A program made the position numbers and the translations under genes. Shown piece after piece: positions 50,858-62,663 of a DNA stretch of 64,000 nt (the first letter of the stretch is position 1; each line of letters begins with the position of its first letter). Source of the stretch: an uncultured Alphaproteobacteria bacterium (GTDB lineage: Bacteria; Pseudomonadota; Alphaproteobacteria; HIMB59; GCA-002718135); NCBI GenBank assembly GCA_902621725.1, contig CACNND010000003.1, forward strand, positions 47,782 to 111,781, read 5' to 3'. The notes beneath the pieces are model-generated. The model saw only the letters and a program-made list of their open reading frames with translations. It did not search any database and was not told where the DNA came from.

Positions 50858-52717
50858 ATGGCAGAAAAAAATAGAGAAAATTTAACTTTTCAAGCTGAAG
50901 TAAGCAAGCTTTTAGATCTTGTTGCTAATTCTCTTTATAGCGAAAGGGAAATATTTCTAAGAGAACTAATATCTAATTCAGCTGATGCCTGTGAAAAATT
51001 AAGATATCAATCACTCTCCAAAAAAAATCTTCTGAAAGATGAAAAGGATTTAAAAATTAACATCAGAGTTTCAAAAAAGAAAAAGATTATTGAAATAGAA
51101 GATAATGGAATTGGAATGTCTAAAAATGAACTTATTGATAATCTAGGAACTATAGCGAGATCAGGAACTAGTAAATTTATCGAAACAATGAAAAATAAAA
51201 AGAGTAACGATATTTCTGCAATTGGACAGTTTGGTGTTGGTTTTTATTCCTCATATATGGTTGCTGATAATGTTGAAGTACTCTCTAAAGACGCTGAGAA
51301 TGAAGAAACAAATCTTTGGTCTTCCAATGGAAAAGAAAATTATACCATAGAAGATGCTAAAAAAGATAAAAGAGGTACTTGTATAACTCTAAGTATAAAG
51401 AAAGATGCTGATGAATTTTTAGATTCATTTCGTTTAAGATCAATTATAACAAAATACTCAAATTATATTCCTTTCCCAATTTATCTTAAGGATCTTGACG
51501 ATAAAGAAAAAGAAGAAAAAATAAATGAAGGTAGTCCATTATGGCTAAAAGATAAAAAAGATATAAAAGAAGAAGACTATAAGCAATTTTATAATAATAT
51601 TTCATTTAACTTTGATGATCCCTTAAAAACTATTCACTATAACGCAGAGGGTGTTATTAGTTATAAGGCTTTACTATTTTTTCCTACAAATCAACCTATG
51701 GATTTATTCAATGCTGATAGGAAAAATAAAATAAAATTATATGTTCAAAAAGTTTTTATCACTGATGATTGTGAAGACATAATTCCTAATTGGCTTCGTT
51801 TCATTCCAGGAGTAGTGGACTCTCAAGATATTTCTCTCAATATAAGTAGAGAAATGCTTCAAAATAATCCAATCATTACAAAAATTAAAAAAGGTATTAC
51901 AAACAAAATTTTAAGTGAAATTGATAGTTTAGCTAAAAAAGAAAAGGATAAATTTGAGACATTTTGGAAAAATTTTGGTCCAGTTCTAAAAGAAGGTTTA
52001 TACGAACATAATGATCATCATGAAAAAATCCTGCCGCTACTAAGGTTTGAAAATTCTTTAAATGATAAAAAAATATCACTTGAAGAGTACACTAAGTTAA
52101 TGGCTAAAGATCAAAAAGAAATTTATTATTTTGCTAATACTGATAAGGATCATATAAAAAACTCCCCTCAATTAGAAGTTTTCACTGATAAAAAGATACC
52201 AGTATTGTTTATGGTTGATGCAGTAGATGAGTTTTGGATACAAAATGTAAATAAATTTAAAGACTTAGAATTTAAATCAATAACCAAAGGCAAGGTTGAT
52301 GTTTCAAAAGTTGGTGAAAAATCAAGTAAGAAAGATGAAAATAAAAAAGAAATAGATAGTAAAATCAATGATTTAATTAACATTCTTAAAACAGAGCTAA
52401 AAGAAACTATATCTGATGTTATTGTATCTGAAAGATTAACCAAAAGCCCAATTCTACTTGTTGCTGAAGAAACTGGAATGGATATAAATATGGAAAAACT
52501 GATGAAAATGCATAATCAAAAAACTCCTGTTTCAAAAAAGATACTTGAAATTAATCCGAACCATCCGATGATTGTAAATTTATCTAAAAATTTAACAAAA
52601 ATTGACCACAAAAAAGCTTCAAATTTAATTTTAGATCAAGCTAATATATTAGATGGTAACATTCTCTCAAATCCATCTGCTTACCTAGAAAATTTAACTG
52701 AAATTTTTATTAAGTAA
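50858..52717 (+). CDS. htpG: Hsp90 chaperone HtpG
   Basis: FQAEV, FLRELISN, DNGIGM, NLGTIARSG, IGQFGVGFYS, LNISRE. Confidence 0.97.
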   Translation: MAEKNRENLTFQAEVSKLLDLVANSLYSEREIFLRELISNSADACEKLRYQSLSKKNLLKDEKDLKINIRVSKKKKIIEIEDNGIGMSKNELIDNLGTIARSGTSKFIETMKNKKSNDISAIGQFGVGFYSSYMVADNVEVLSKDAENEETNLWSSNGKENYTIEDAKKDKRGTCITLSIKKDADEFLDSFRLRSIITKYSNYIPFPIYLKDLDDKEKEEKINEGSPLWLKDKKDIKEEDYKQFYNNISFNFDDPLKTIHYNAEGVISYKALLFFPTNQPMDLFNADRKNKIKLYVQKVFITDDCEDIIPNWLRFIPGVVDSQDISLNISREMLQNNPIITKIKKGITNKILSEIDSLAKKEKDKFETFWKNFGPVLKEGLYEHNDHHEKILPLLRFENSLNDKKISLEEYTKLMAKDQKEIYYFANTDKDHIKNSPQLEVFTDKKIPVLFMVDAVDEFWIQNVNKFKDLEFKSITKGKVDVSKVGEKSSKKDENKKEIDSKINDLINILKTELKETISDVIVSERLTKSPILLVAEETGMDINMEKLMKMHNQKTPVSKKILEINPNHPMIVNLSKNLTKIDHKKASNLILDQANILDGNILSNPSAYLENLTEIFIK

Positions 52718-53648
52718 CTGAGTTTATAATTTTTTTATTATTAAAAAATTCAACAAACTGATTAGCAACCATTTCTGCAACAACTATTTGTGCTTCATCA
52801 GTAGAAGCAGCAATGTGTGGAGTTAAAATTATATTATCTAAATTATAAAACCCACTTTCTTCTAAAGGCTCATTTTTAAAAACATCTAATGCAGCACCTT
52901 TAATTTCTTTTTTTTCTAGAGCATTTTTAAGATCATCTTCATCAACTAAGTTACCTCTAGCAGTATTGATAATGATGCAATTTTTTTTCATTAGTGATAG
53001 ATGATTTTTATTAATAATCGGAACTCCATCCTTATTGGGCTTACAGTGAAAAGAAATTATATCTGAATCTTTAATAATCTCATCGATAGAACAAGAATAA
53101 TATTCAGGATACTTATCCTTAATTTTTTCAAAGTATGAAGAAAATATTGAAACGTGCATTCCCAATACATTCGATATTTCTGCAACTCTTTTGCCTACAT
53201 TACCAAAACCTACGATACCAATTTTCTTGCCTTTAATTTCATTTCCCTTAAGTTTCTTTTTTTCCCAAAGACCCTTATGAGTTGTCTCATTGGCCATAGT
53301 AATTTTTCTTTGTAATGCAAAAATTAAACCAATTGTGTGTTCTGCTGTAGCATTTGTATTTCCTCCTGGAGTATTCATTACAATAATATTTTTATTTTTA
53401 GCAGCTTCCACATCAACATTATCTACTCCTGCCCCTGCCCTACCTATAATTTTTAAATTTGAAAGAGAATCGATTAAATCTTTTCGCACTTTAGTTGCAG
53501 AACGAACGATTAAACCATCATAGTTATCAATTATTTTTTTTAATTCTTCAGGAGATAAGTTTGTTTTTGTGTCAACTGAAATGTTATTCTTTATTAAAAT
53601 TTCAGATGCTATGTTATCTAATGAATCTGATATTAATACTTTAGGCAT
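52710..53648 (-). CDS. serA: D-3-phosphoglycerate dehydrogenase (short form, no ACT domain)
   Basis: GLIVRSATKV, GRAGAGVDNVD, MNTPGGN, INTARG, TPHIAAST.EAQ; coupled to serC. Confidence 0.88.
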   Translation of the reverse strand: MPKVLISDSLDNIASEILIKNNISVDTKTNLSPEELKKIIDNYDGLIVRSATKVRKDLIDSLSNLKIIGRAGAGVDNVDVEAAKNKNIIVMNTPGGNTNATAEHTIGLIFALQRKITMANETTHKGLWEKKKLKGNEIKGKKIGIVGFGNVGKRVAEISNVLGMHVSIFSSYFEKIKDKYPEYYSCSIDEIIKDSDIISFHCKPNKDGVPIINKNHLSLMKKNCIIINTARGNLVDEDDLKNALEKKEIKGAALDVFKNEPLEESGFYNLDNIILTPHIAASTDEAQIVVAEMVANQFVEFFNNKKIINSVT

Positions 53649-54804
53649 GTTTTGATTTAATCTCTGAATAGGCCCAATCTATCCAAGGTAAAACTAATTC
53701 TACATCTGAAGTTTGAACCGTGCCTCCAGCCCATATTCTAAAAGAAGGTGGTGCTTTTGGATATCCATTACAATCAAATCCAACATTATTTTCAGAAAGC
53801 AATTTGCAAATATCAGCCATTACAGCTCTTTGACCACTTTCATCTTTATCAGTAAACCAATCTTCAACAATTTTAAAAGTTATCCCAGTGTTTGAAATAT
53901 AATTCTCATCCTCAATTTCAGATAAAAAAGTAACCCAATCTCTCTCACTAATCCATTCTCGGATTTTTTGTAAAGAGTTCTGAGATTTGGAGATTAATGA
54001 ATTTAATCCTCCTTGAGAAGAAACCCAGTTTAAAGAATCAATAATATCCTCAACACATATCATTGATGGCGTATTAATTGTATTTCCTTCAAAAATACCT
54101 TTTATTAATTTTTGTTTTTCAGCCAATCTAAATAATTTTGGTACTGGCCAGCTAGGTGTAAAACTTTCTAATCTTTCAACAACGCGTGGAGAAATTGCAA
54201 TCATTCCATGAGCGGCTTCTCCTCCAAGTATTTTTTGCCAAGACCAAGTTATAACATCACATTTGTTATAATCTATAGGCATACCAAAGATTGCTGAAGT
54301 AGCATCACAAATCGTTAGGCCTTTTCTGTCATCAGGTATCCAATCTCCATTAGGAACTTTGACACCAGATGTTGTTCCATTCCATGTAAAAATAACATCA
54401 TTATCAAAATTGACTTTGGAAAGGTCAGGTAGCTTGCCATAATCTTCTTCATGAATATTTAAATTGTCTAATTTTAATTCACTAATTGCATCGATTACCC
54501 AATCTTTACCAAAATTTTCCCATGCAAGAATATCGACTCCCGTTTTACCTAATAGGCACCACATAGCAGCTTCTAAAGCACCAGTATTTGATCCAGGCAT
54601 TATACCCAACAAATAATCATCAGGTAATTTTAGAATTGCTTTAGATTTATCTATTGCTTCTTTTAGTCTTGCTTTACATTCAACAGATCTATGAGATCTG
54701 CCAGTTAAAGCATTACTCAAAACAGATATGTCCCAACCTGGTCTTTTTGAGGTTGGGCCACTTGAAAAGTTTGGATTGTTAGGTTTGGTATTAGGTTTAT
54801 TCAT
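53641..54804 (-). CDS. serC: Phosphoserine aminotransferase (alphaproteobacterial/Methanosarcina type)
   Basis: PNFSSGPTSKRPGW, GRSHRS, WNGTTSGV, DATSA, SWQK, TINTPS. Confidence 0.93.
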   Translation of the reverse strand: MNKPNTKPNNPNFSSGPTSKRPGWDISVLSNALTGRSHRSVECKARLKEAIDKSKAILKLPDDYLLGIMPGSNTGALEAAMWCLLGKTGVDILAWENFGKDWVIDAISELKLDNLNIHEEDYGKLPDLSKVNFDNDVIFTWNGTTSGVKVPNGDWIPDDRKGLTICDATSAIFGMPIDYNKCDVITWSWQKILGGEAAHGMIAISPRVVERLESFTPSWPVPKLFRLAEKQKLIKGIFEGNTINTPSMICVEDIIDSLNWVSSQGGLNSLISKSQNSLQKIREWISERDWVTFLSEIEDENYISNTGITFKIVEDWFTDKDESGQRAVMADICKLLSENNVGFDCNGYPKAPPSFRIWAGGTVQTSDVELVLPWIDWAYSEIKSKHA

Positions 54805-56015
54805 ATACTTTTTTCAAACTCATAAACTACTAAGCCATCTAAAGGTTTTGGATCAAACCATGTTGATTTAGGAGGCATAGTCAAATTTTTATTCGCGACT
54901 TTAATAACATCACTTATTGAAGATGGAAAGATAGAAAATGCCACACTGTCATTATTTTCATCAACTTTTTTTTCTAATGCTTCCAAACCATGGCATCCGG
55001 CAATAAATCTTATTCTTTCATCATTATTAACATCAGAAATATTTAAATGTTTTTTGAAAATGAAATTGTTTAAAATATTAATATCCAGTGTATCTACAAA
55101 ATTATCTGTTTTTAACTCAGTTTTAAAATGCAATGAATACCACTTTTTTTCATGATACATTCCAAATTGTTTATTTGATAAAGGTTTGAATGGATTTTTT
55201 TCATTTTTTATTTCAAAGTTTTCAGAAAGAATTTTTAAAAACTTTTCTTCACTCAAACCATTTAAATCTTTAACAACTCTATTATAGTCAAATATTTTAG
55301 CCTCATCACTTGGAAAAGCTGCTATCATGAAATCTTCCTGTAAAATATTTTTATTATAATTTAATTCTCCAATAATCTTCATTGCACCCATTCTATGATG
55401 TCCATCTGCAATATAAAAATTTTCTACTTCATTTATAAAAACAGAAGATAAGTTTTTGATAAAAGATTGATCAGAAATACACCAAAGTTTATGAATAGAT
55501 TTATCGAAGCTTTCAAAATCATAATCTGGAATTTTTGATATTATAGAGGATAACAAATATTTTATCTTATTATTTTTTTTATATACTACATAGATAGGGC
55601 CAATTTGTGTTTTTATATTTAACATTTGCTCTGCTCTTTCTCTCATCCTTGTCTCATATATTTTTTCATGTGCTTTAATTTTTTCATCTACAAAATCTGA
55701 GATTTTAGAAAGAGATAAAAACCCTAGTTGAGTATGACCTTTAAATTCAATTTGATAAACATAATAAAATAATTCTTCATCTTTTTTGATTACTTCATTT
55801 TCTTTCATTTCCTTAAAATGCAATTTTGCTTCTAAAAGAGTATCTGCTTCTTTTAATTGTCCAACGGGATTCAAAATTTTTAAGTAATTCCAATAATTAT
55901 TTTTTTTAAATATTTCTATATTTTCAATGCTTAAATGATCAGTAGAAGGAGCAATTAAATTCTTTGCATCTTCGTTATAGGGGCGTGTTCCTTTAAAAGG
56001 TTTAATTTCAACCAT
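54801..56015 (-). CDS. DUF1015 family protein
   Basis: IKPFKG.RP, IKAHE, YIADGHHR, IFDYNRVVKDLNG, MPPKSTWFDPK. Confidence 0.9.
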   Translation of the reverse strand: MVEIKPFKGTRPYNEDAKNLIAPSTDHLSIENIEIFKKNNYWNYLKILNPVGQLKEADTLLEAKLHFKEMKENEVIKKDEELFYYVYQIEFKGHTQLGFLSLSKISDFVDEKIKAHEKIYETRMRERAEQMLNIKTQIGPIYVVYKKNNKIKYLLSSIISKIPDYDFESFDKSIHKLWCISDQSFIKNLSSVFINEVENFYIADGHHRMGAMKIIGELNYNKNILQEDFMIAAFPSDEAKIFDYNRVVKDLNGLSEEKFLKILSENFEIKNEKNPFKPLSNKQFGMYHEKKWYSLHFKTELKTDNFVDTLDINILNNFIFKKHLNISDVNNDERIRFIAGCHGLEALEKKVDENNDSVAFSIFPSSISDVIKVANKNLTMPPKSTWFDPKPLDGLVVYEFEKSI

Positions 56016-56061
56016 AATAAAGTAACACCTTTAATTAAATAAAAAAAAATTTAAACTTAAA

Positions 56062-57426
56062 TTACGCTACTTCTGGTATTTGCGAAATGGATTTACCTAT
56101 TCCATCATCATCAATAACATCATCAGCCATTGATCCATTTAGATAATCATCATAAGCTGACATATCAAAATATCCATGACCACATAAATTAAATAGAATA
56201 GTTTTTGACTCACTTTTTTCTTTACATTCTAATGCTGCATCAATTGCACCTTTTATTGCATGGTTTCCTTCTGGTGCAGGAATAATTCCTTCTTGTTTTG
56301 CAAAAGTAAGACCAGCTTCAAAACAATCTTTTTGACCGTAAGCCTTTGCTCTCATTAGACCAAGCTCGTATAAATGACTTAAATGATAAGACATACCATG
56401 GTATCTTAATCCGCCAGAGTGATTAGCCGGTGGTAAGAAATCAGATCCAAGAGTGTGCATTTTAATTAATGGCGTCATTTTTGCCATATCACCATGATCA
56501 TAAGCATACTTACCCTTAGTAAATGAAGGACATGATGCAGGCTCGCAACCAATTATATCAATTTTTTGACCACCTCTTAATTGTTGACCTAAAAATGGAA
56601 ACATTAATCCAGAAAGATTACTACCACCGCCTGTACATCCAACAATTATATCAGGATAATCTCCAGCCATCTCCATTTGCATAATAGCTTCATTACCATT
56701 TATAGTTTGATGCATTAAAACATGACCTAAAACACTTCCAAGTGAGTATTTTGCTTTACCACCACTTTTAACAGTTGCTTCTATTGCCTCTGATATAGCT
56801 ATTCCCAAGCTTCCGGGGTTATCAGGATTTTCTGATAATAATTTGTTACCGAAATCAGTTAAATTAGATGGACTAGCGTGACAGTTAGCGCCGAATGATT
56901 GCATCATTAATTTTCTGTAAGGCTTATGATCAAAACTAACTTTAACCATGAAAACTTCAATATCAATGCCAAAGATCTGACCTGCAAAAGCTAAAGAACT
57001 TCCCCATTGACCTGCACCCGTTTCAGTAAATATTTTACTAATTCCCTCTTCTTTATTAAAAAAAGCTTGTGGGACTGCAGTATTTGGTTTGTGACTTCCA
57101 GTAGGACTAACACCTTCATATTTATAATAAATTTTAGCTGGTGTATCTAAAAACTTTTCCAATCTTCTTGCTCTAAATAATGGAGAAGGTCTCCATTGTT
57201 TATATACTTCTCTTACTGGTTCAGGTATTTCTATTTCTCTTTCAGTAGAAACTTCTTGCATAATTAAACTCATAGGAAATAAAGGTGCGAAGTCATCAGG
57301 ACCAGCTGGTTGTTTAGTTCCAGGGTGTAAAGGTGGTGGTGGTGGACTTGGTAAGTCAGCATTAATATTATACCAAAACTTTGGAGCTTTATTTTCTTCT
57401 AATAAGTATTTAATTGAGTCACTCAT
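56062..57426 (-). CDS. trpB2: TrpB2 (stand-alone tryptophan synthase beta-like PLP enzyme)
   Basis: WYNINADLP, WRPSPL.RA, KYEGVSPTGSHKPN, TETGAGQWG, LGIAISEA, GGLRYHG, FNLCGHG. Confidence 0.92.
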   Translation of the reverse strand: MSDSIKYLLEENKAPKFWYNINADLPSPPPPPLHPGTKQPAGPDDFAPLFPMSLIMQEVSTEREIEIPEPVREVYKQWRPSPLFRARRLEKFLDTPAKIYYKYEGVSPTGSHKPNTAVPQAFFNKEEGISKIFTETGAGQWGSSLAFAGQIFGIDIEVFMVKVSFDHKPYRKLMMQSFGANCHASPSNLTDFGNKLLSENPDNPGSLGIAISEAIEATVKSGGKAKYSLGSVLGHVLMHQTINGNEAIMQMEMAGDYPDIIVGCTGGGSNLSGLMFPFLGQQLRGGQKIDIIGCEPASCPSFTKGKYAYDHGDMAKMTPLIKMHTLGSDFLPPANHSGGLRYHGMSYHLSHLYELGLMRAKAYGQKDCFEAGLTFAKQEGIIPAPEGNHAIKGAIDAALECKEKSESKTILFNLCGHGYFDMSAYDDYLNGSMADDVIDDDGIGKSISQIPEVA

Positions 57427-57518
57427 AATAAAAGTATATTGAACTATAAAATATTAAATTTCAACCATAAATGAAATACTTTAACTTCAAAAATGTGTCT
57501 ATTTTTATAGCTTTGTTA

Positions 57519-58442
57519 TTAGTATTGTACGTTTTTTTCGGATATTTTACTCATTGATTTTTTTTGACCCACAAAAAGGCCAATAAAAACTAAAATAATC
57601 CCAATTACTGAACTAAATACTATTTGCTCAGAAAGAAATATGAATCCCCATATTAAAGCAAAAACAGGGATTAAATATGCGACGTAAGATAAGAAGACTG
57701 GACCAGATTGTTTAACTATATGGTATCTCATATGAAATGCAATTGCTGTTGGGAAAACACCTAAGTAAATAATAGAAATTATAGAAATTTTATTAATATT
57801 AGTTTCATAATTTATAAAATCATAGAATAAGAATGGTAATGATATTAATGCTCCAAATAAAGTAGCAAAAGTAGTAATTGAAATGGGACTTAATTTTTTT
57901 AATTTATTGTATGCAGCAATATTTGAAATCATGTAGCCAAATGCTGCTACAATTACAAATATTTTTGCGATTGTGCTAATGTAATTGTCTTTTTGAAAAT
58001 TGAACTTACTAATATCTAATATAAAAATTATACCAAGAAAACCTATAATAATGGATAAAAATTTAATCCAAGTAAATTTATCATCTGATGTTAAAATATG
58101 AGACATAAGTAATGTAATTAAGGGACCTACTGACATTAATAAACCAGCTGTGGAAGAAGGTATATATTGTTCAGCCCAACTAATAAGATAAAAGGGTAAA
58201 AAATTGCCTGTGATTCCTATAAAGGTAAGAATAAAAATTAATTCAAAATTTAATTTAGGATTTTTATTGTATGAATAATAAAGAATAATTAAAAAAATTG
58301 ATGCAATAATCAACCTCAAAGAGGCAATACTTGTTGGGGTAAAACTAGACAAACAAATTTTAATTACAAAAAATGACGACCCCCAGATAGCTGATAAAAT
58401 GATTAAAAGAAGTAAATTATTAGATGAAAGTTTATTTAACAA
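57519..58442 (-). CDS. DMT/EamA family transporter
   Basis: IWGSSF, YLIPVFALIWG..FLSE; TTG start. Confidence 0.88.
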   Translation of the reverse strand: MLNKLSSNNLLLLIILSAIWGSSFFVIKICLSSFTPTSIASLRLIIASIFLIILYYSYNKNPKLNFELIFILTFIGITGNFLPFYLISWAEQYIPSSTAGLLMSVGPLITLLMSHILTSDDKFTWIKFLSIIIGFLGIIFILDISKFNFQKDNYISTIAKIFVIVAAFGYMISNIAAYNKLKKLSPISITTFATLFGALISLPFLFYDFINYETNINKISIISIIYLGVFPTAIAFHMRYHIVKQSGPVFLSYVAYLIPVFALIWGFIFLSEQIVFSSVIGIILVFIGLFVGQKKSMSKISEKNVQY

Positions 58443-58445
58443 AAA

Positions 58446-58745
58446 CTAGATTTTGTTTTTTGGTAATGGGATTTCTATATTGTCAGCATTTTTCATAAAC
58501 TCATCTCTTCTTCCGTCCCATAAATATTCTGCATAATCAAATTCAGTAATCATCCTGTCGGAACGTTCAAAGGTAAGACCATATTTCCGACAATAACTTG
58601 CAAATTCTTCAGCATTATCAATTGGTAAATTTTCTACTGTCCATTTTCTAGAACTTCTATCAAATTTAAAACCATTTTTTTTAAACCAATCTCTATGATA
58701 GTAAGAGTCTCTTCCAAAAGCAGAAAATGTAATTTTTTTTGACAT
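58446..58745 (-). CDS. Hypothetical soluble protein (99 aa)
   Basis: ORF with a K..GFKFD....KW motif, resembling small beta-rich DUF5710-like domains. Confidence 0.75.
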   Translation of the reverse strand: MSKKITFSAFGRDSYYHRDWFKKNGFKFDRSSRKWTVENLPIDNAEEFASYCRKYGLTFERSDRMITEFDYAEYLWDGRRDEFMKNADNIEIPLPKNKI

Positions 58746-58855
58746 AAAGGATCATGCTATTACATGAAAATAACAAAAAAAACAAATTTAATTTTAAAAA
58801 TATATTTTATGTAAAAATAGTAGAAATATAACCTTAATTATAATAAGATAAAAAT

Positions 58856-59188
58856 ATGGATCTTTATAGTAGCAGTGAAATAACAGTTCATCGATTAAAT
58901 GAACTTAAACAAGATGATAAAAAAATTCAAATTATAGATGTAAGAGAAGATACGGAAAGAGATCATGCTCATATTAAGGGCACGATACATATGAAGCTAT
59001 CTGAAATTGCCGAAAGATATAAAGAATTAGATAAAAATAAGAATATCTTTGTTATGTGTCATACAGGTACAAGAAGTCAAGCAGTATGCAAATGGCTAAA
59101 AGCTCAAGGTTGCAATCATTGTGTTAATGTACTTGGAGGAATAGATGCTTGGGCAGCATTAATAGACAGAAATATAAGAAGATATTAA
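58856..59188 (+). CDS. Single-domain rhodanese/sulfurtransferase
   Basis: IIDVRE, HIKG, CHTGTRS active-site loop, GGIDAW. Confidence 0.92.
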   Translation: MDLYSSSEITVHRLNELKQDDKKIQIIDVREDTERDHAHIKGTIHMKLSEIAERYKELDKNKNIFVMCHTGTRSQAVCKWLKAQGCNHCVNVLGGIDAWAALIDRNIRRY

Positions 59189-59373
59189 CCTATGCTTTCA
59201 ATATAAAGACCAAAAAAAATAATAATAACGCTAATAAAAAAAAGTATAGTTCTCAATAAAATTTCAAAAAATAAATTAAAATTTACTCTTTTTTTAACTA
59301 TTAATTTATAAAATGGATTACTTAATGATATAGAAATTAAAATAATTCCAAATAATATTATTACCCAATGCAT
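59185..59373 (-). CDS. Small two-TM membrane protein, hypothetical
   Basis: 62 aa ORF, two hydrophobic helices, fills the gap. Confidence 0.6.
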   Translation of the reverse strand: MHWVIILFGIILISISLSNPFYKLIVKKRVNFNLFFEILLRTILFFISVIIIFFGLYIESIG

Positions 59374-60045
59374 AGTAGTAATTCATACATAGCTGAAGAT
59401 TATAAATTTTCAAATCAAACTATTAAAGAGATGAAAATTAATTCTTTTAATTTTTATAAAAAAATAAAAGAAAGACGGAGTATACGTGATTTTAATAAAA
59501 CAAAAATAGATATAGAAATTATAAAAAATGCAATTTTATCTGCCGGATCTGCACCAAATGGTGCCAATCTTCAACCATGGCATTTTGTTATTATAAAAGA
59601 TCAAGATATTAAGAAAAAGATTAGAATAGCAGCAGAAAAAGAAGAAAGAACTTTTTATGAATATAAAGCTCCAAAAGAATGGTTAGATGCATTAAAACCC
59701 TTAGGTACTGATGAAAACAAAAAGTTTATTGAAAATGCACCTTATCTAATTGCAGTATTTGAAAAAAAATATTCTATTTCCAAAAATAAAAAAATTAAAA
59801 ATTATTATGTTAAAGAGTCTGTAGGAATTGCTACCGGTATTTTAATTACATGTTTACATTTTTGTGGTTTAGCAATGTTAACACATACTCCCAGCCCTAT
59901 GACTTTTCTAAATAAAATTTTAAATAGACCAATTAATGAAAAACCATTTGTTTTGTTAATTGTAGGTTATCCCAAAAAGAATACTAAAGTTCCAAAATTT
60001 GCTAAAAAGAAAAAAAATTTTAACGAGATTTCTAGTATTTTTTAA
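59368..60045 (+). CDS. Nitroreductase superfamily, iodotyrosine deiodinase (IYD)-like
   Basis: RRSIRDF, APNGANLQPWHF, KKIRIAAEKEE..FY, LGTD..K.F, YYVKESVGIA, LTHTP. Confidence 0.87.
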   Translation: MHSSNSYIAEDYKFSNQTIKEMKINSFNFYKKIKERRSIRDFNKTKIDIEIIKNAILSAGSAPNGANLQPWHFVIIKDQDIKKKIRIAAEKEERTFYEYKAPKEWLDALKPLGTDENKKFIENAPYLIAVFEKKYSISKNKKIKNYYVKESVGIATGILITCLHFCGLAMLTHTPSPMTFLNKILNRPINEKPFVLLIVGYPKKNTKVPKFAKKKKNFNEISSIF

Positions 60046-60619: not shown

Positions 60620-61687
60620 TTATTGTGGTACTTCCCCATCAATACCTTGAACATAAAAGTTCATTCCAAGTAACATTCCATCAGGTGCTACTTCACCTTC
60701 AGGAACCACAAGCTCACCAGCTTGATTGTAAATTGGACCTGTGAAAGGATGGATAGTTCCATCTTTAATTCCAACTTCCATATTTACAGCTTCTTGAATT
60801 AAACTTGCTGGCATAAGTTTAGTATTATATGGTGACATTACAACCATACCTTTATCCATACCATCCCAAGTATCACCTGAAGACCAAGTACCATCCACAA
60901 CAGCTTTTGCTCTTTCAGCATAGTAAGGGCCCCAGATATCTTCAATTGAAGTTAAGTGTGCATCAGGACAAAATTCCTCTTGGTTTGAAGCTTGACCAAA
61001 TGCATAAACACCTGCTTTTTGAGCGGCTTGGCAAGGAGCATATGTATCTGTATGCTGAACAATTATGTCAGCTCCTTGATTAATCAATGTATTAGCTGCA
61101 TCAGCTTCTTTACCTGGGTCATACCAAGTAAATACCCAAATAATTTTCATTTTGATATCTGGATTTACTTTAGATGCCGCTAGATAAAATGCATTAATTC
61201 CTCTTACAACTTCTGGAATAGGGAATGAAGCTATATAACCAATAGTATTAGTTTCAGTCATATGACCAGCAATATGACCTTCAATCATTCTACCTTCGTA
61301 AAATCTAGCTGAATACGTAGCAACGTTATCTGCTTGGATATACCCAGTAGCATGTTCAAATTTTATGTCAGGAAAATCCTTAGCTACTTCATGTGTCTGA
61401 TCCATATAATTGAAAGACGTTGTAAATATTAAATCATGTCCTGAGTCTGCTAGTTTCCGGATTGCTCTCACTGCATCTGCATTTTCAGGAATATTTTCAA
61501 GATAAGTAGTAGTAATAGAGTCACCAAGTTGGCTCTCCATATATTTTCTACCTACATCATGCATATAAGTCCAACCATGATCACCTGGAGGACCTATGTA
61601 TATAAATCCAACTTTTTTAGGGTCTGCATATACTGAACCAAATGCAAATACCAAAAAAGTAGATAAAAAAGTTATTATTCTAATCAT
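60620..61687 (-). CDS. BMP family ABC transporter substrate-binding protein (purine/nucleoside)
   Basis: GFIYIGPPGDHGW, FTTSF, FEHATGY, PIPEVVRGINAF, WYDPGKE, QHTD. Confidence 0.92.
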   Translation of the reverse strand: MIRIITFLSTFLVFAFGSVYADPKKVGFIYIGPPGDHGWTYMHDVGRKYMESQLGDSITTTYLENIPENADAVRAIRKLADSGHDLIFTTSFNYMDQTHEVAKDFPDIKFEHATGYIQADNVATYSARFYEGRMIEGHIAGHMTETNTIGYIASFPIPEVVRGINAFYLAASKVNPDIKMKIIWVFTWYDPGKEADAANTLINQGADIIVQHTDTYAPCQAAQKAGVYAFGQASNQEEFCPDAHLTSIEDIWGPYYAERAKAVVDGTWSSGDTWDGMDKGMVVMSPYNTKLMPASLIQEAVNMEVGIKDGTIHPFTGPIYNQAGELVVPEGEVAPDGMLLGMNFYVQGIDGEVPQ

Positions 61688-61793
61688 TTTAACCTCACCT
61701 GCTAATATAACGATTACTCAATCACATACTTAATATATACAAATAGATTTGATCAATAATTGTATATGATTATAGAAAAAAAAAAGTGGATAT

Positions 61794-62663
61794 TTATCTG
61801 CCTTTGTAAAAAGGTATAGTTAACGAAGCTGGAGCACTAAGCTTTATTCTTAATTTATTACTAGAAATTAACACTAAAACTATAATAGTTGCAATATATG
61901 GAGCCATGCTGAAAAATTGGCCAGGGAATCTTAAACCTAAAGCCTGGAGATTCATTTGAAGAATAGTAACACCTCCGAATATATAGGCACCAATAAGCAC
62001 TCTTTCTGGTTTCCAAGTTGCAAATACAACTAAAGCTAACGCAATCCATCCACGTCCAGCTGTCATACCCTCTTGCCACATTGGAGCATAACAAATTGAA
62101 ATATATGATCCTGCAAGTGCGCACATAGAACCTCCAAATAAGATTGATAAAAATCTAATTTTAATAACGCTATATCCTAAAGCATGTGCAGAATTATGGG
62201 ATTCCCCTACTGCTCTTAAAATCAAACCAGCTTTAGTTTTATAAAAAAAATAACTAACCAAAAAAACAATTAAGAAAGAAAATATAACAAAAAACCATGG
62301 TGATAGACCATCAATTGGTGTTCCAATATATTGTTTGCCAAGCATCGAACTAAGACCTATTCCAAAAATGGTTAATGCTAATCCTGTTGCAATTTGATTT
62401 GACATTAAAAATAGAACTAAAAACGCAAATAAACCAGACATAATAATTCCTGATAATATAGATACAAAAAAAGCTAAAAAATAACTTCCTGTAATTACTA
62501 GGATAATAAAAGCGGACACTGCTCCTACCAACATCATTCCTTCTACACCTAAATTTAAAACACCAGATTTTTCTGTAACTAACTCACCTATACCAGCAAA
62601 AACAAGAGGTGTTGTTGCAATTAAAACAATTTGTAATATTCCAAGTATTAAATCTAAATTCAT
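61794..62663 (-). CDS. Nucleoside ABC transporter permease
   Basis: EKSGVLNLGVEG, LRAVGE, AGRGWIALALV, PYIATI. Confidence 0.92.
   Translation of the reverse strand: MNLDLILGILQIVLIATTPLVFAGIGELVTEKSGVLNLGVEGMMLVGAVSAFIILVITGSYFLAFFVSILSGIIMSGLFAFLVLFLMSNQIATGLALTIFGIGLSSMLGKQYIGTPIDGLSPWFFVIFSFLIVFLVSYFFYKTKAGLILRAVGESHNSAHALGYSVIKIRFLSILFGGSMCALAGSYISICYAPMWQEGMTAGRGWIALALVVFATWKPERVLIGAYIFGGVTILQMNLQALGLRFPGQFFSMAPYIATIIVLVLISSNKLRIKLSAPASLTIPFYKGR

Follow-up and report, generated by a model that had tools for sequence, protein, structure and literature searches.

A SerBK-type phosphorylated serine operon with trpB2 and a transporter gene placed ahead of it in one family of marine HIMB59 bacteria

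Results

Layout of the locus

The stretch of DNA analysed here (the window) comprises 64,000 nucleotides on contig C3 (CACNND010000003.1) of the genome assembly of an uncultured alphaproteobacterium of the order HIMB59 (G000; 1.38 Mb in 65 contigs, 81.6% complete, about 27% G+C). On its minus strand trpB2, the gene for a stand-alone tryptophan synthase of the TrpB2 type, directly precedes a gene for a DUF1015 protein, which is followed by serC and serA. With a confidence only a little above even (roughly 0.55) we read the block as a phosphorylated serine operon of the SerBK type, ahead of which a transporter and a TrpB2 that consumes O-phospho-L-serine (OPS) have been placed. In the direction of transcription its features are as follows.

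58446..58745, minus strand: small99, a conserved hypothetical gene of 99 amino acids (open reading frame (ORF); 3 bp upstream of the EamA gene)
57519..58442, minus strand: membrane protein of the EamA family of drug/metabolite transporters (PF00892, 139.7 bits; 92 bp upstream of trpB2)
56062..57426, minus strand: trpB2, stand-alone TrpB2-type pyridoxal phosphate (PLP) enzyme (tryptophan synthase beta-2), 454 amino acids (NF009057, 700 bits)
56016..56061, minus strand: A+T-rich 46-bp spacer between trpB2 and the DUF1015 gene (sequence inspection)
54801..56015, minus strand: DUF1015 protein (SerBK), 404 amino acids (PF06245, 218.8 bits)
53641..54804, minus strand: serC, phosphoserine transaminase of type 2, 387 amino acids (NF002841, 585.8 bits)
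52710..53648, minus strand: serA, probable D-3-phosphoglycerate dehydrogenase (PGDH) of a short type, 312 amino acids (PF02826, 184 bits; PF00389, 128 bits)

All coordinates are positions in the window. Gene boundaries derive from ORF calling, and proteins were assigned to families by Pfam and NCBIfam profile scans judged against the cut-off of each model. ORF calling reproduced the four co-oriented genes from trpB2 to serA of a preliminary description, together with its boundaries: the 46-bp gap is followed by an overlap of 4 bp between the serC start and the DUF1015 stop and by one of 8 bp between the serA start and the serC stop. The EamA gene and small99 are co-oriented directly upstream and form part of the conserved block, whereas htpG converges on serA, whose stop overlaps it by 8 bp. 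Inside the spacer, an AGGTG ribosome-binding site precedes the DUF1015 ATG by about 11 nt, and a terminator scan detected no terminator-like hairpin there. Promoter prediction over the block returned 42 promoter-like sites compared with 40.3 in shuffled sequences, an absence of excess that is uninformative at 27% G+C, and an Rfam scan of positions 52000–59500 revealed no riboswitch or leader.

The DUF1015 protein resembles serine kinases and belongs to the SerBK family

Residues 4–311 of the DUF1015 protein cover positions 1–323 of the 325 in the PF06245 profile, far above the cut-off of 25.8 bits. In an alignment of 112 DUF1015 sequences, the window copy included, H116, E117, D204, G205, H206, H207, R208, K383, T385, P389 and K390 are invariant; the DGHHR motif highlighted in the preliminary description is part of ADGHHR at residues 203–208. 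An AlphaFold2 model built on this alignment (pLDDT 95.4, pTM 0.93) bears out the resemblance to SerK and SbnI, enzymes with a ParB/Srx-type fold, that had been suggested at the same time. Foldseek gave nine matches at E ≤ 1e-3, all of them SerK (5x0b, 5x0e, 5x0g, 5x0j, 5x0k and 1vk1) or SbnI (5uje, 5ujd and 6nr6), and matches beyond these nine have probabilities below 0.15. VIA-align yielded Z-scores of 11.5–13.3 over 214–227 residues for the nine entries, compared with 5.2 for Noc, 4.8–4.9 for sulfiredoxin and 4.5 for ParB. A profile-to-PDB alignment superimposes kkHE on 'KPHEQ' of SerK, IADGHHR on 'IVDGHHR' and PPKST on 'SPKTT'; E30 in 'KPHEQ' is the residue altered in the E30A/E30Q entries (5x0e and 5x0j). 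Sequence similarity to SerK was not significant in the profile search (E values of 0.15 for 1vk1 and 1.5 for 5x0b), and phmmer with the DUF1015 sequence returned no SerK or SbnI match, which places the protein outside the SerK/SbnI sequence family.

The function of DUF1015 proteins is already in print. In a GapMind 2026 preprint (10.1101/2024.10.14.618325), the family is named SerBK, Clostridium botulinum CBO1128 complements Escherichia coli serB::kan, and DUF1015 homologs adjoin serA and serC; a confident SerB is missing from 47 of 50 genomes with close DUF1015 homologs, and the top Foldseek match of SerBK is SbnI. The preprint cites Hofmann 2018 for the proposal that a C. difficile DUF1015 protein is the missing phosphatase. 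The interconversion of serine and phosphoserine that the preliminary description had attributed to the window protein agrees with the published SerBK, and the predicted fold and the motifs would fit such a role. In the window, too, DUF1015 overlaps serC and is followed in turn by serA, the arrangement typical of SerBK, and this order is kept in related loci.

The window protein is a new divergent member of this described family. Its identity to most members of a set of the 150 best family representatives, taken from 6258 clusters at E ≤ 1e-3, is 28–37%, and its score of 219 bits compares with 280–380 bits for most alphaproteobacterial copies; judged by these values, it represents a divergent marine branch. 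Close relatives come from marine single-cell genomes of uncultured Alphaproteobacteria, including 'Pelagibacteraceae bacterium AG-337-I02' and 'MarineAlpha5_Bin5'. AG-337-I02 is assigned to AEGEAN-169, order HIMB59, formerly SAR11 clade V, in PMC8692485, and the family to which the source genome belongs (hereafter its own family) is probably the AG-337-I02-type family of this order. In its main text, the AEGEAN-169 genomics paper mentions neither serine nor tryptophan nor glycine.

Serine and tryptophan genes of the source genome

SerC exceeds the cut-offs of NF002841 (477 bits) and, with 517.9 bits, of TIGR01365 (448 bits), which identifies it as a type-2 equivalog. SerA consists of the 2-Hacid_dh and 2-Hacid_dh_C domains and has no ASB or ACT domain. 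Its best NCBIfam match, the PGDH model TIGR01327 (326 bits, cut-off 454), extends over profile positions 1–308 of 525, in line with the ACT feedback domain having been described as lacking; the score stays under the cut-off because the C-terminal half (ASB and ACT) is absent from the short form. The second-best match is glyoxylate reductase (212 bits), and the serC context favours PGDH identity.

The SerB model TIGR00338 found no match in the 81.6% complete source assembly, in a search that did not extend to other phosphatase types such as the histidine-phosphatase PspA; nor did it match in any of five relatives with a completeness of 92–99%, among them a closed genome. The preliminary statement that serB and trpA are missing holds for the window, but trpA is present in the genome: trpF-trpB1-trpA-accD-folC lie on contig C4, away from trpB2, and trpE, trpD and trpC on C16. 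Since the canonical trp pathway is complete elsewhere, TrpB2 is an extra copy. No tryptophanase was found in the assembly (best PF01212 score 34 bits). The sole CysK/CysM-like gene found (C11, 11603–12520, minus strand) reaches 265 bits compared with a subfamily cut-off of 344 bits; two other PALP-fold ORFs, on C27 and C11, resemble Ser/Thr dehydratases and were rejected as cysteine synthases.

The resemblance of SerBK to kinases raises the question of direction. Imported serine might be phosphorylated by SerBK to OPS, which would then pass through SerC and SerA to 3-phosphoglycerate or be used by TrpB2, SerBK standing to TrpB2 as SbnI stands to SbnA. We regard a block run in this sense as improbable, yet the fold and the catalytic motifs are those of kinases, BT1151 is required for growth with L-serine as nitrogen source and reversal of the kinase reaction is thermodynamically unfavourable, as stated in the preprint (10.1101/2024.10.14.618325). 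The source genome also encodes glyA, a possible alternative source of serine, and in one genus of the own family trpB2, DUF1015 and serA have stayed together though serC has moved (see below). Against this, a purely catabolic operon would, without SerB, require another route to serine, and glyA needs glycine. Moreover, OPS-to-serine conversion is possible because a SerBK family member complements serB, as the preprint reports. The kinase direction is in any case compatible with an OPS-consuming TrpB2 ahead of a serine operon and does not exclude it.

TrpB2 belongs to a conserved clade with its own substitutions

TrpB2 surpasses the cut-offs of NF009057 (366 bits) and TIGR01415 (606 bits, cut-off 519), whereas the TrpB1 model TIGR00263 gives 133 bits, under its cut-off of 392. 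Its best solved relatives are structures of Sulfolobus solfataricus TrpB2 (6hul_B, 458 bits; 4qys_B, 386 bits; 6hte_B, 385 bits). The segments that are invariant in 24 TrpB2 sequences are kept: K113 in SHKPN, which we take to be the PLP lysine, T134–G142 (TETGAGQWG), presumably the indole-site segment, and G338–M345 (GGLRYHGM). For TrpB2 enzymes of archaea and Thermotoga, a preference for OPS over serine and a high affinity for indole are reported (Busch 2014 and Hettwer 2002, as cited in PMC11917138).

In a quick IQ-TREE analysis the TrpB2 sequences of the own family form a fully supported clade with a long stem (0.56) and internal branches of 0.01–0.09. They fall together with those of the sister family into one unresolved alphaproteobacterial group, and the tree points neither way as to horizontal acquisition of the gene. 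At ten positions with at least 90% conservation among 63 other TrpB2 sequences, this clade is fixed for another residue (L46F, E176Q, V215I, N234G, F271L, A293G, L302F, A337S, P347Y and E397A); at site 234, all 63 other sequences have Asn and the clade has Gly. TrpB2 is also by a wide margin the most conserved gene of the block, with 98–100% identity among species in which DUF1015 is 93–96% identical, and with 86–88% between genera compared with 44–54% for DUF1015 and 67–79% for HtpG.

These features might indicate that TrpB2 has shifted to another β-replacement of OPS, either with water, giving serine and phosphate and thereby the irreversible step that a reversible SerBK is without, or with sulfide, giving cysteine. 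A long stem followed by extreme conservation, the clade-fixed substitutions including N234G, the thermodynamic puzzle of SerBK (10.1101/2024.10.14.618325) and a sole CysK-like match that stays below its cut-off are all in keeping with such a shift. We nevertheless hold it to be very unlikely: every alignment-invariant site is kept, K113 and TETGAGQWG among them, the characterised relatives are tryptophan synthases, and the sister family copes with SerBK and no adjacent TrpB2. In addition, DUF1015 alone rescues E. coli serB, according to the preprint.

trpB2 and DUF1015 are linked throughout one family

Our order-level sample comprised 151 genomes, covering eight genera of the own family and a sister family of one genus with a closed 1.41-Mb genome. 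In 57 of 66 related genome loci trpB2 lies directly upstream of DUF1015; the other nine are cut by a contig end in or beside these genes, and none has another neighbour. At the level of genomes, the two genes are adjacent on one strand in 64 of the 65 own-family members that hold both, in all eight genera, with both genes at contig ends in the single exception. The adjacency is evidently no peculiarity of the source genome. In one genus (G301) trpB2, DUF1015 and serA are contiguous (L097, contig C18, 7440–11009) even though serC has moved to another contig (C6, 25672–26808).

Transcript data for the block come from seawater. Twenty metatranscriptome runs hold 15–18% of its sampled words, and four runs from four studies, analysed as assembled contigs, contain pieces 88–99% alike over all four genes. 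The spacer between trpB2 and DUF1015 is bridged in two runs (X1 record 5, 55885–56355; X19 record 21, 55876–56580), the DUF1015/serC junction by X16 record 12 and the serC/serA junction by X16 record 9. The sparse coverage that the contig-based layout shows for EamA and for parts of DUF1015 is uninterpretable.

Single origin and rare parallels of the linkage

Several observations weigh against a functional meaning of this linkage, among them its absence from the sister family. There the adjacency occurs in 0 of 44 genomes with both genes, and in the four that carry them on one contig they are 128–162 kb apart. The closed genome G030, of the HIMB59-type genus, has small99, DUF1015, serC and serA in the same order as the window (L095) without EamA or trpB2. 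Its SerC and SerA are 57% and 49% identical to those of the window, and its DUF1015 (L095, 9196–10287), a frame of 380 amino acids with 134 bits and 31% identity, is still beside serC and serA; its TrpB2 is encoded 136 kb from the block and is only 63% identical. We therefore conclude that a single insertion, in the own family's ancestor, brought EamA and trpB2 in between small99 and DUF1015. By this comparison of gene orders, the trpB2-DUF1015 adjacency is one evolutionary event in one family. The whole neighbourhood from the rhodanese gene to htpG is syntenic in the own family, and its retention may therefore reflect general genome stasis and not selection for the pairing.

Outside the order the link is rare. 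Among 301 alphaproteobacterial genomes, including an unpublished one (G240) with neither gene, TrpB2 exceeded its cut-off in 27, DUF1015 was present in 32 and both genes in five, of which only the source genome and its congener show adjacency. Flanks of about 9 kb in each direction were searched for 20 of the 24 TrpB2 genes located outside the order (tblastn, E ≤ 1e-5), and no locus (0/20) held a homolog of SerA, SerC, DUF1015 or EamA. Scanning metagenomes with an alignment of 24 TrpB2 sequences recovered 80 loci of 55–89% identity, one of them from the own family. Pfam was run on 109 of 110 nearest-neighbour ORFs (≤600 bp) in 74 loci, one ORF of 2464 amino acids being omitted; the neighbours are very mixed, and in the 73 loci from outside the own family 2 of 108 are serine-pathway genes. 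Aromatic-pathway genes account for five neighbours (TrpA, TrpRS, two PDH or chorismate-mutase genes and chorismate synthase). In none of the 79 other loci is TrpB2 next to a small ParB/Srx-like (serine-kinase-like) gene. Merkl 2007 reports no conserved neighbourhood of trpB2 except trp operons.

The two serine-pathway neighbours belong to two of these 79 unrelated loci. L161 (262–5242, plus strand) encodes on one strand a short SerA (TIGR01327, 435 bits), TrpB2, an ATPase-like ORF and a type-1 SerC (NF003764, 494 bits). In L123 (2–2212, plus strand) a SerB (TIGR00338, 199 bits, cut-off 144) immediately precedes TrpB2 on the same strand; this SerB is itself a competitor for OPS. In L151, DUF1015 is encoded 6.5 kb away from TrpB2 on the opposite strand and was not counted as a link. 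The TrpB2 proteins of L161, L123 and L151 fall into three different clades of the TrpB2 tree, which argues that the serine-gene links arose independently. A rough null (three ser genes in about 3000) predicts 0.1–0.3 such neighbours where two were seen (Poisson P 0.005–0.04), an excess that is suggestive, not strong. Three further candidates were set aside: the only DGxHR-like motif among 43 unannotated neighbours (L155, 11378–11956) is spurious, lying in an Arg-rich low-complexity ORF with no Pfam match and an hhalign probability of 0.7%; the SerA-like match of L148 is 23–25% identical and 5 kb off; and the class-V aminotransferase of L149 is BhcA-like (291 bits, compared with 28 bits for the SerC model).

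Further points count on the same side. Assembled contigs cannot prove a single transcript, and RNA libraries may carry DNA. The OPS preference is known from TrpB2 enzymes outside the clade with the long stem and the ten substitutions, so that its extension to the window protein stays provisional. Furthermore, the authors of the preprint leave open whether SerBK acts as kinase or phosphatase and which nucleotide it uses (10.1101/2024.10.14.618325).

The main rival to our reading of the block is a historical accident: SerBK, SerC and SerA would form the functional unit, EamA and trpB2 would have landed ahead of them by chance and been kept solely by the rarity of rearrangement in these streamlined genomes, and TrpB2 would salvage indole independently of the ser genes, with whichever amino-acid donor. 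The single insertion, a sister family that does without the link, the lack of ser genes at the alphaproteobacterial loci and the heterogeneous metagenomic neighbours all agree with chance, as do the equally syntenic flanks (rhodanese, small99 and htpG), the want of a second conserved trpB2 neighbourhood in Merkl 2007 and, in the distant own-family members L067 and L068, spacers of about 180–190 bp between trpB2 and DUF1015 that leave room for a separate promoter. We still consider an accident a possible but doubtful explanation. It accounts poorly for the two independent links of TrpB2 to serA and serC (L161) and to serB (L123), for the survival of the trpB2-DUF1015 adjacency when serC was relocated and for the spacer-bridging contigs in two metatranscriptome runs, and the pairing makes chemical sense given that TrpB2 enzymes are reported to depend on OPS.

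The genes upstream

The EamA protein contains two EamA repeats, and all its NCBIfam matches are under the cut-offs (2A78, 79 bits; YedA, 66 bits; YddG, 35 bits). It accompanies trpB2 in all genera of the own family, and an EamA gene is found beside TrpB2 in none of the 79 other metagenomic and none of the 20 other alphaproteobacterial loci. The protein is 90–94% identical in most close relatives, yet 56–60% in L010, L027, L035 and L063, whose TrpB2 is 97–99% identical despite the divergent EamA; the pattern resembles an allelic replacement of the transporter inside an otherwise conserved block.

small99 has no Pfam or NCBIfam match, and the Atlas returned only clusters of hypothetical proteins and a weak DUF5710 lead (0.83). 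Every related locus that extends far enough shows the gene in synteny. Conserved in both families of HIMB59, it is the ancestral neighbour upstream of DUF1015-serC-serA. It may belong to the serine operon, or regulate it, in a way that has so far escaped recognition.

Farther upstream (60620–62663, minus strand) a BMP-family binding protein and a permease match the 'putative B6 ABC transporter' models NF047927 and NF047928 weakly, with scores under the cut-offs; a purine-type phosphoribosyltransferase gene adjoins them.

Discussion

On the reading that we favour, a SerBK-type serine operon with an OPS-consuming TrpB2 and a transporter ahead of it, the short SerA would oxidise 3-phosphoglycerate and SerC would transaminate the product to OPS. 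SerBK would interconvert OPS and serine, standing in for SerB, and TrpB2 would condense indole with OPS from the SerA-SerC pool to give tryptophan and phosphate. A shared promoter region would then control together how much OPS is supplied and one of the enzymes that consume it. We infer that TrpB2 uses OPS in vivo, that functional coupling accounts for its place in the operon and that EamA moves a related solute. Coupling of TrpB2 via OPS is plausible but unproven; the link traces to one insertion and appears at 0 of 44 sister-family, 0 of 20 alphaproteobacterial and 2 of 79 metagenomic loci. For the same reasons, the verdict of the preliminary description that the gene order directly supports the functions of both DUF1015 and TrpB2 was overstated.

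More speculatively, OPS, and not serine, could be the branch-point metabolite in the AEGEAN-169 family. The co-inserted EamA and TrpB2 would then take up or retain indole and convert it with OPS from the SerA-SerC/SerBK pool, and TrpB2, whose clade changed in a burst on its stem and has been almost frozen since, would be a core, possibly dominant or multifunctional OPS β-replacement enzyme that lends an irreversible, phosphate-releasing pull to a reversible SerBK. We regard this extended scheme as a long shot.

The genomes of AEGEAN-169/HIMB59 carry a phosphorylated serine pathway in which no SerB was found, and the locus enlarges the recently named SerBK family by a divergent marine branch. 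The addition of EamA and trpB2 to the serine block is a lineage-restricted, modest new element. The trpB2 link, the only unpublished part that we found, rests on one insertion and two distant parallels; a full-text search retrieved no literature connecting trpB2 with serine-pathway genes. The preference of TrpB2 for OPS in vitro previously had no genomic support for a physiological meaning. With TrpB2 right ahead of the phosphoserine enzymes, family-wide in an abundant and widespread lineage of ocean bacterioplankton, the idea becomes testable with four clonable genes.

Comparison with known systems

The closest counterparts of the operon are those of C. difficile (CDIF630erm_01132), C. botulinum (CBO1128) and Bacteroides thetaiotaomicron (BT1151). 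Their DUF1015 proteins belong to the same Pfam family and share the invariant motifs and the SerK/SbnI-like fold, as judged at family level; serC and a short serA are their operon partners, and no SerB is detectable in the genomes. The locus described here differs by trpB2 and EamA ahead of the operon, and the terms trpB, indole and O-phosphoserine have 0 occurrences in the GapMind 2026 preprint.

Stand-alone TrpB2 enzymes, represented by those of S. solfataricus, Thermotoga maritima and Thermococcus kodakarensis, are reported to be indole-salvaging, OPS-dependent tryptophan synthases. Family membership of the window protein is clear (386–458 bits to solved structures), and like them it is encoded apart from trpA and trpB1, which are also present in the genome. 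In contrast, it is embedded in a serine-pathway operon and belongs to a long-stem bacterial clade with ten clade-specific substitutions.

SerK of T. kodakarensis (5x0b) and SbnI of Staphylococcus (5uje, 5ujd and 6nr6) have the ParB/Srx-type fold in common with DUF1015, and SerK shares its HE (with the catalytic Glu30 in SerK), DGHHR and PKxT motifs. With about 240 residues they are shorter than the 404-residue DUF1015 protein, which has extra N-terminal and inserted parts, and the net direction of DUF1015 may be from OPS to serine. SbnI makes OPS for staphyloferrin B biosynthesis, according to a review and the title of Verstraete 2018, and Makino 2016, as cited in 10.1101/2024.10.14.618325, deals with SerK in serine use by Thermococcus.

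In both systems, as here, an enzyme acting on serine and OPS is encoded beside a PLP-dependent β-replacement enzyme; the partner in HIMB59 is TrpB2, unreported with a serine kinase in the literature searched. TrpB2 shares fold type II with the PLP enzymes that these kinases supply, SbnA in the case of SbnI and an OPS sulfhydrylase in that of SerK. By analogy, TrpB2 would be the third PLP partner of a serine/OPS enzyme, after SbnA and OPS sulfhydrylase.

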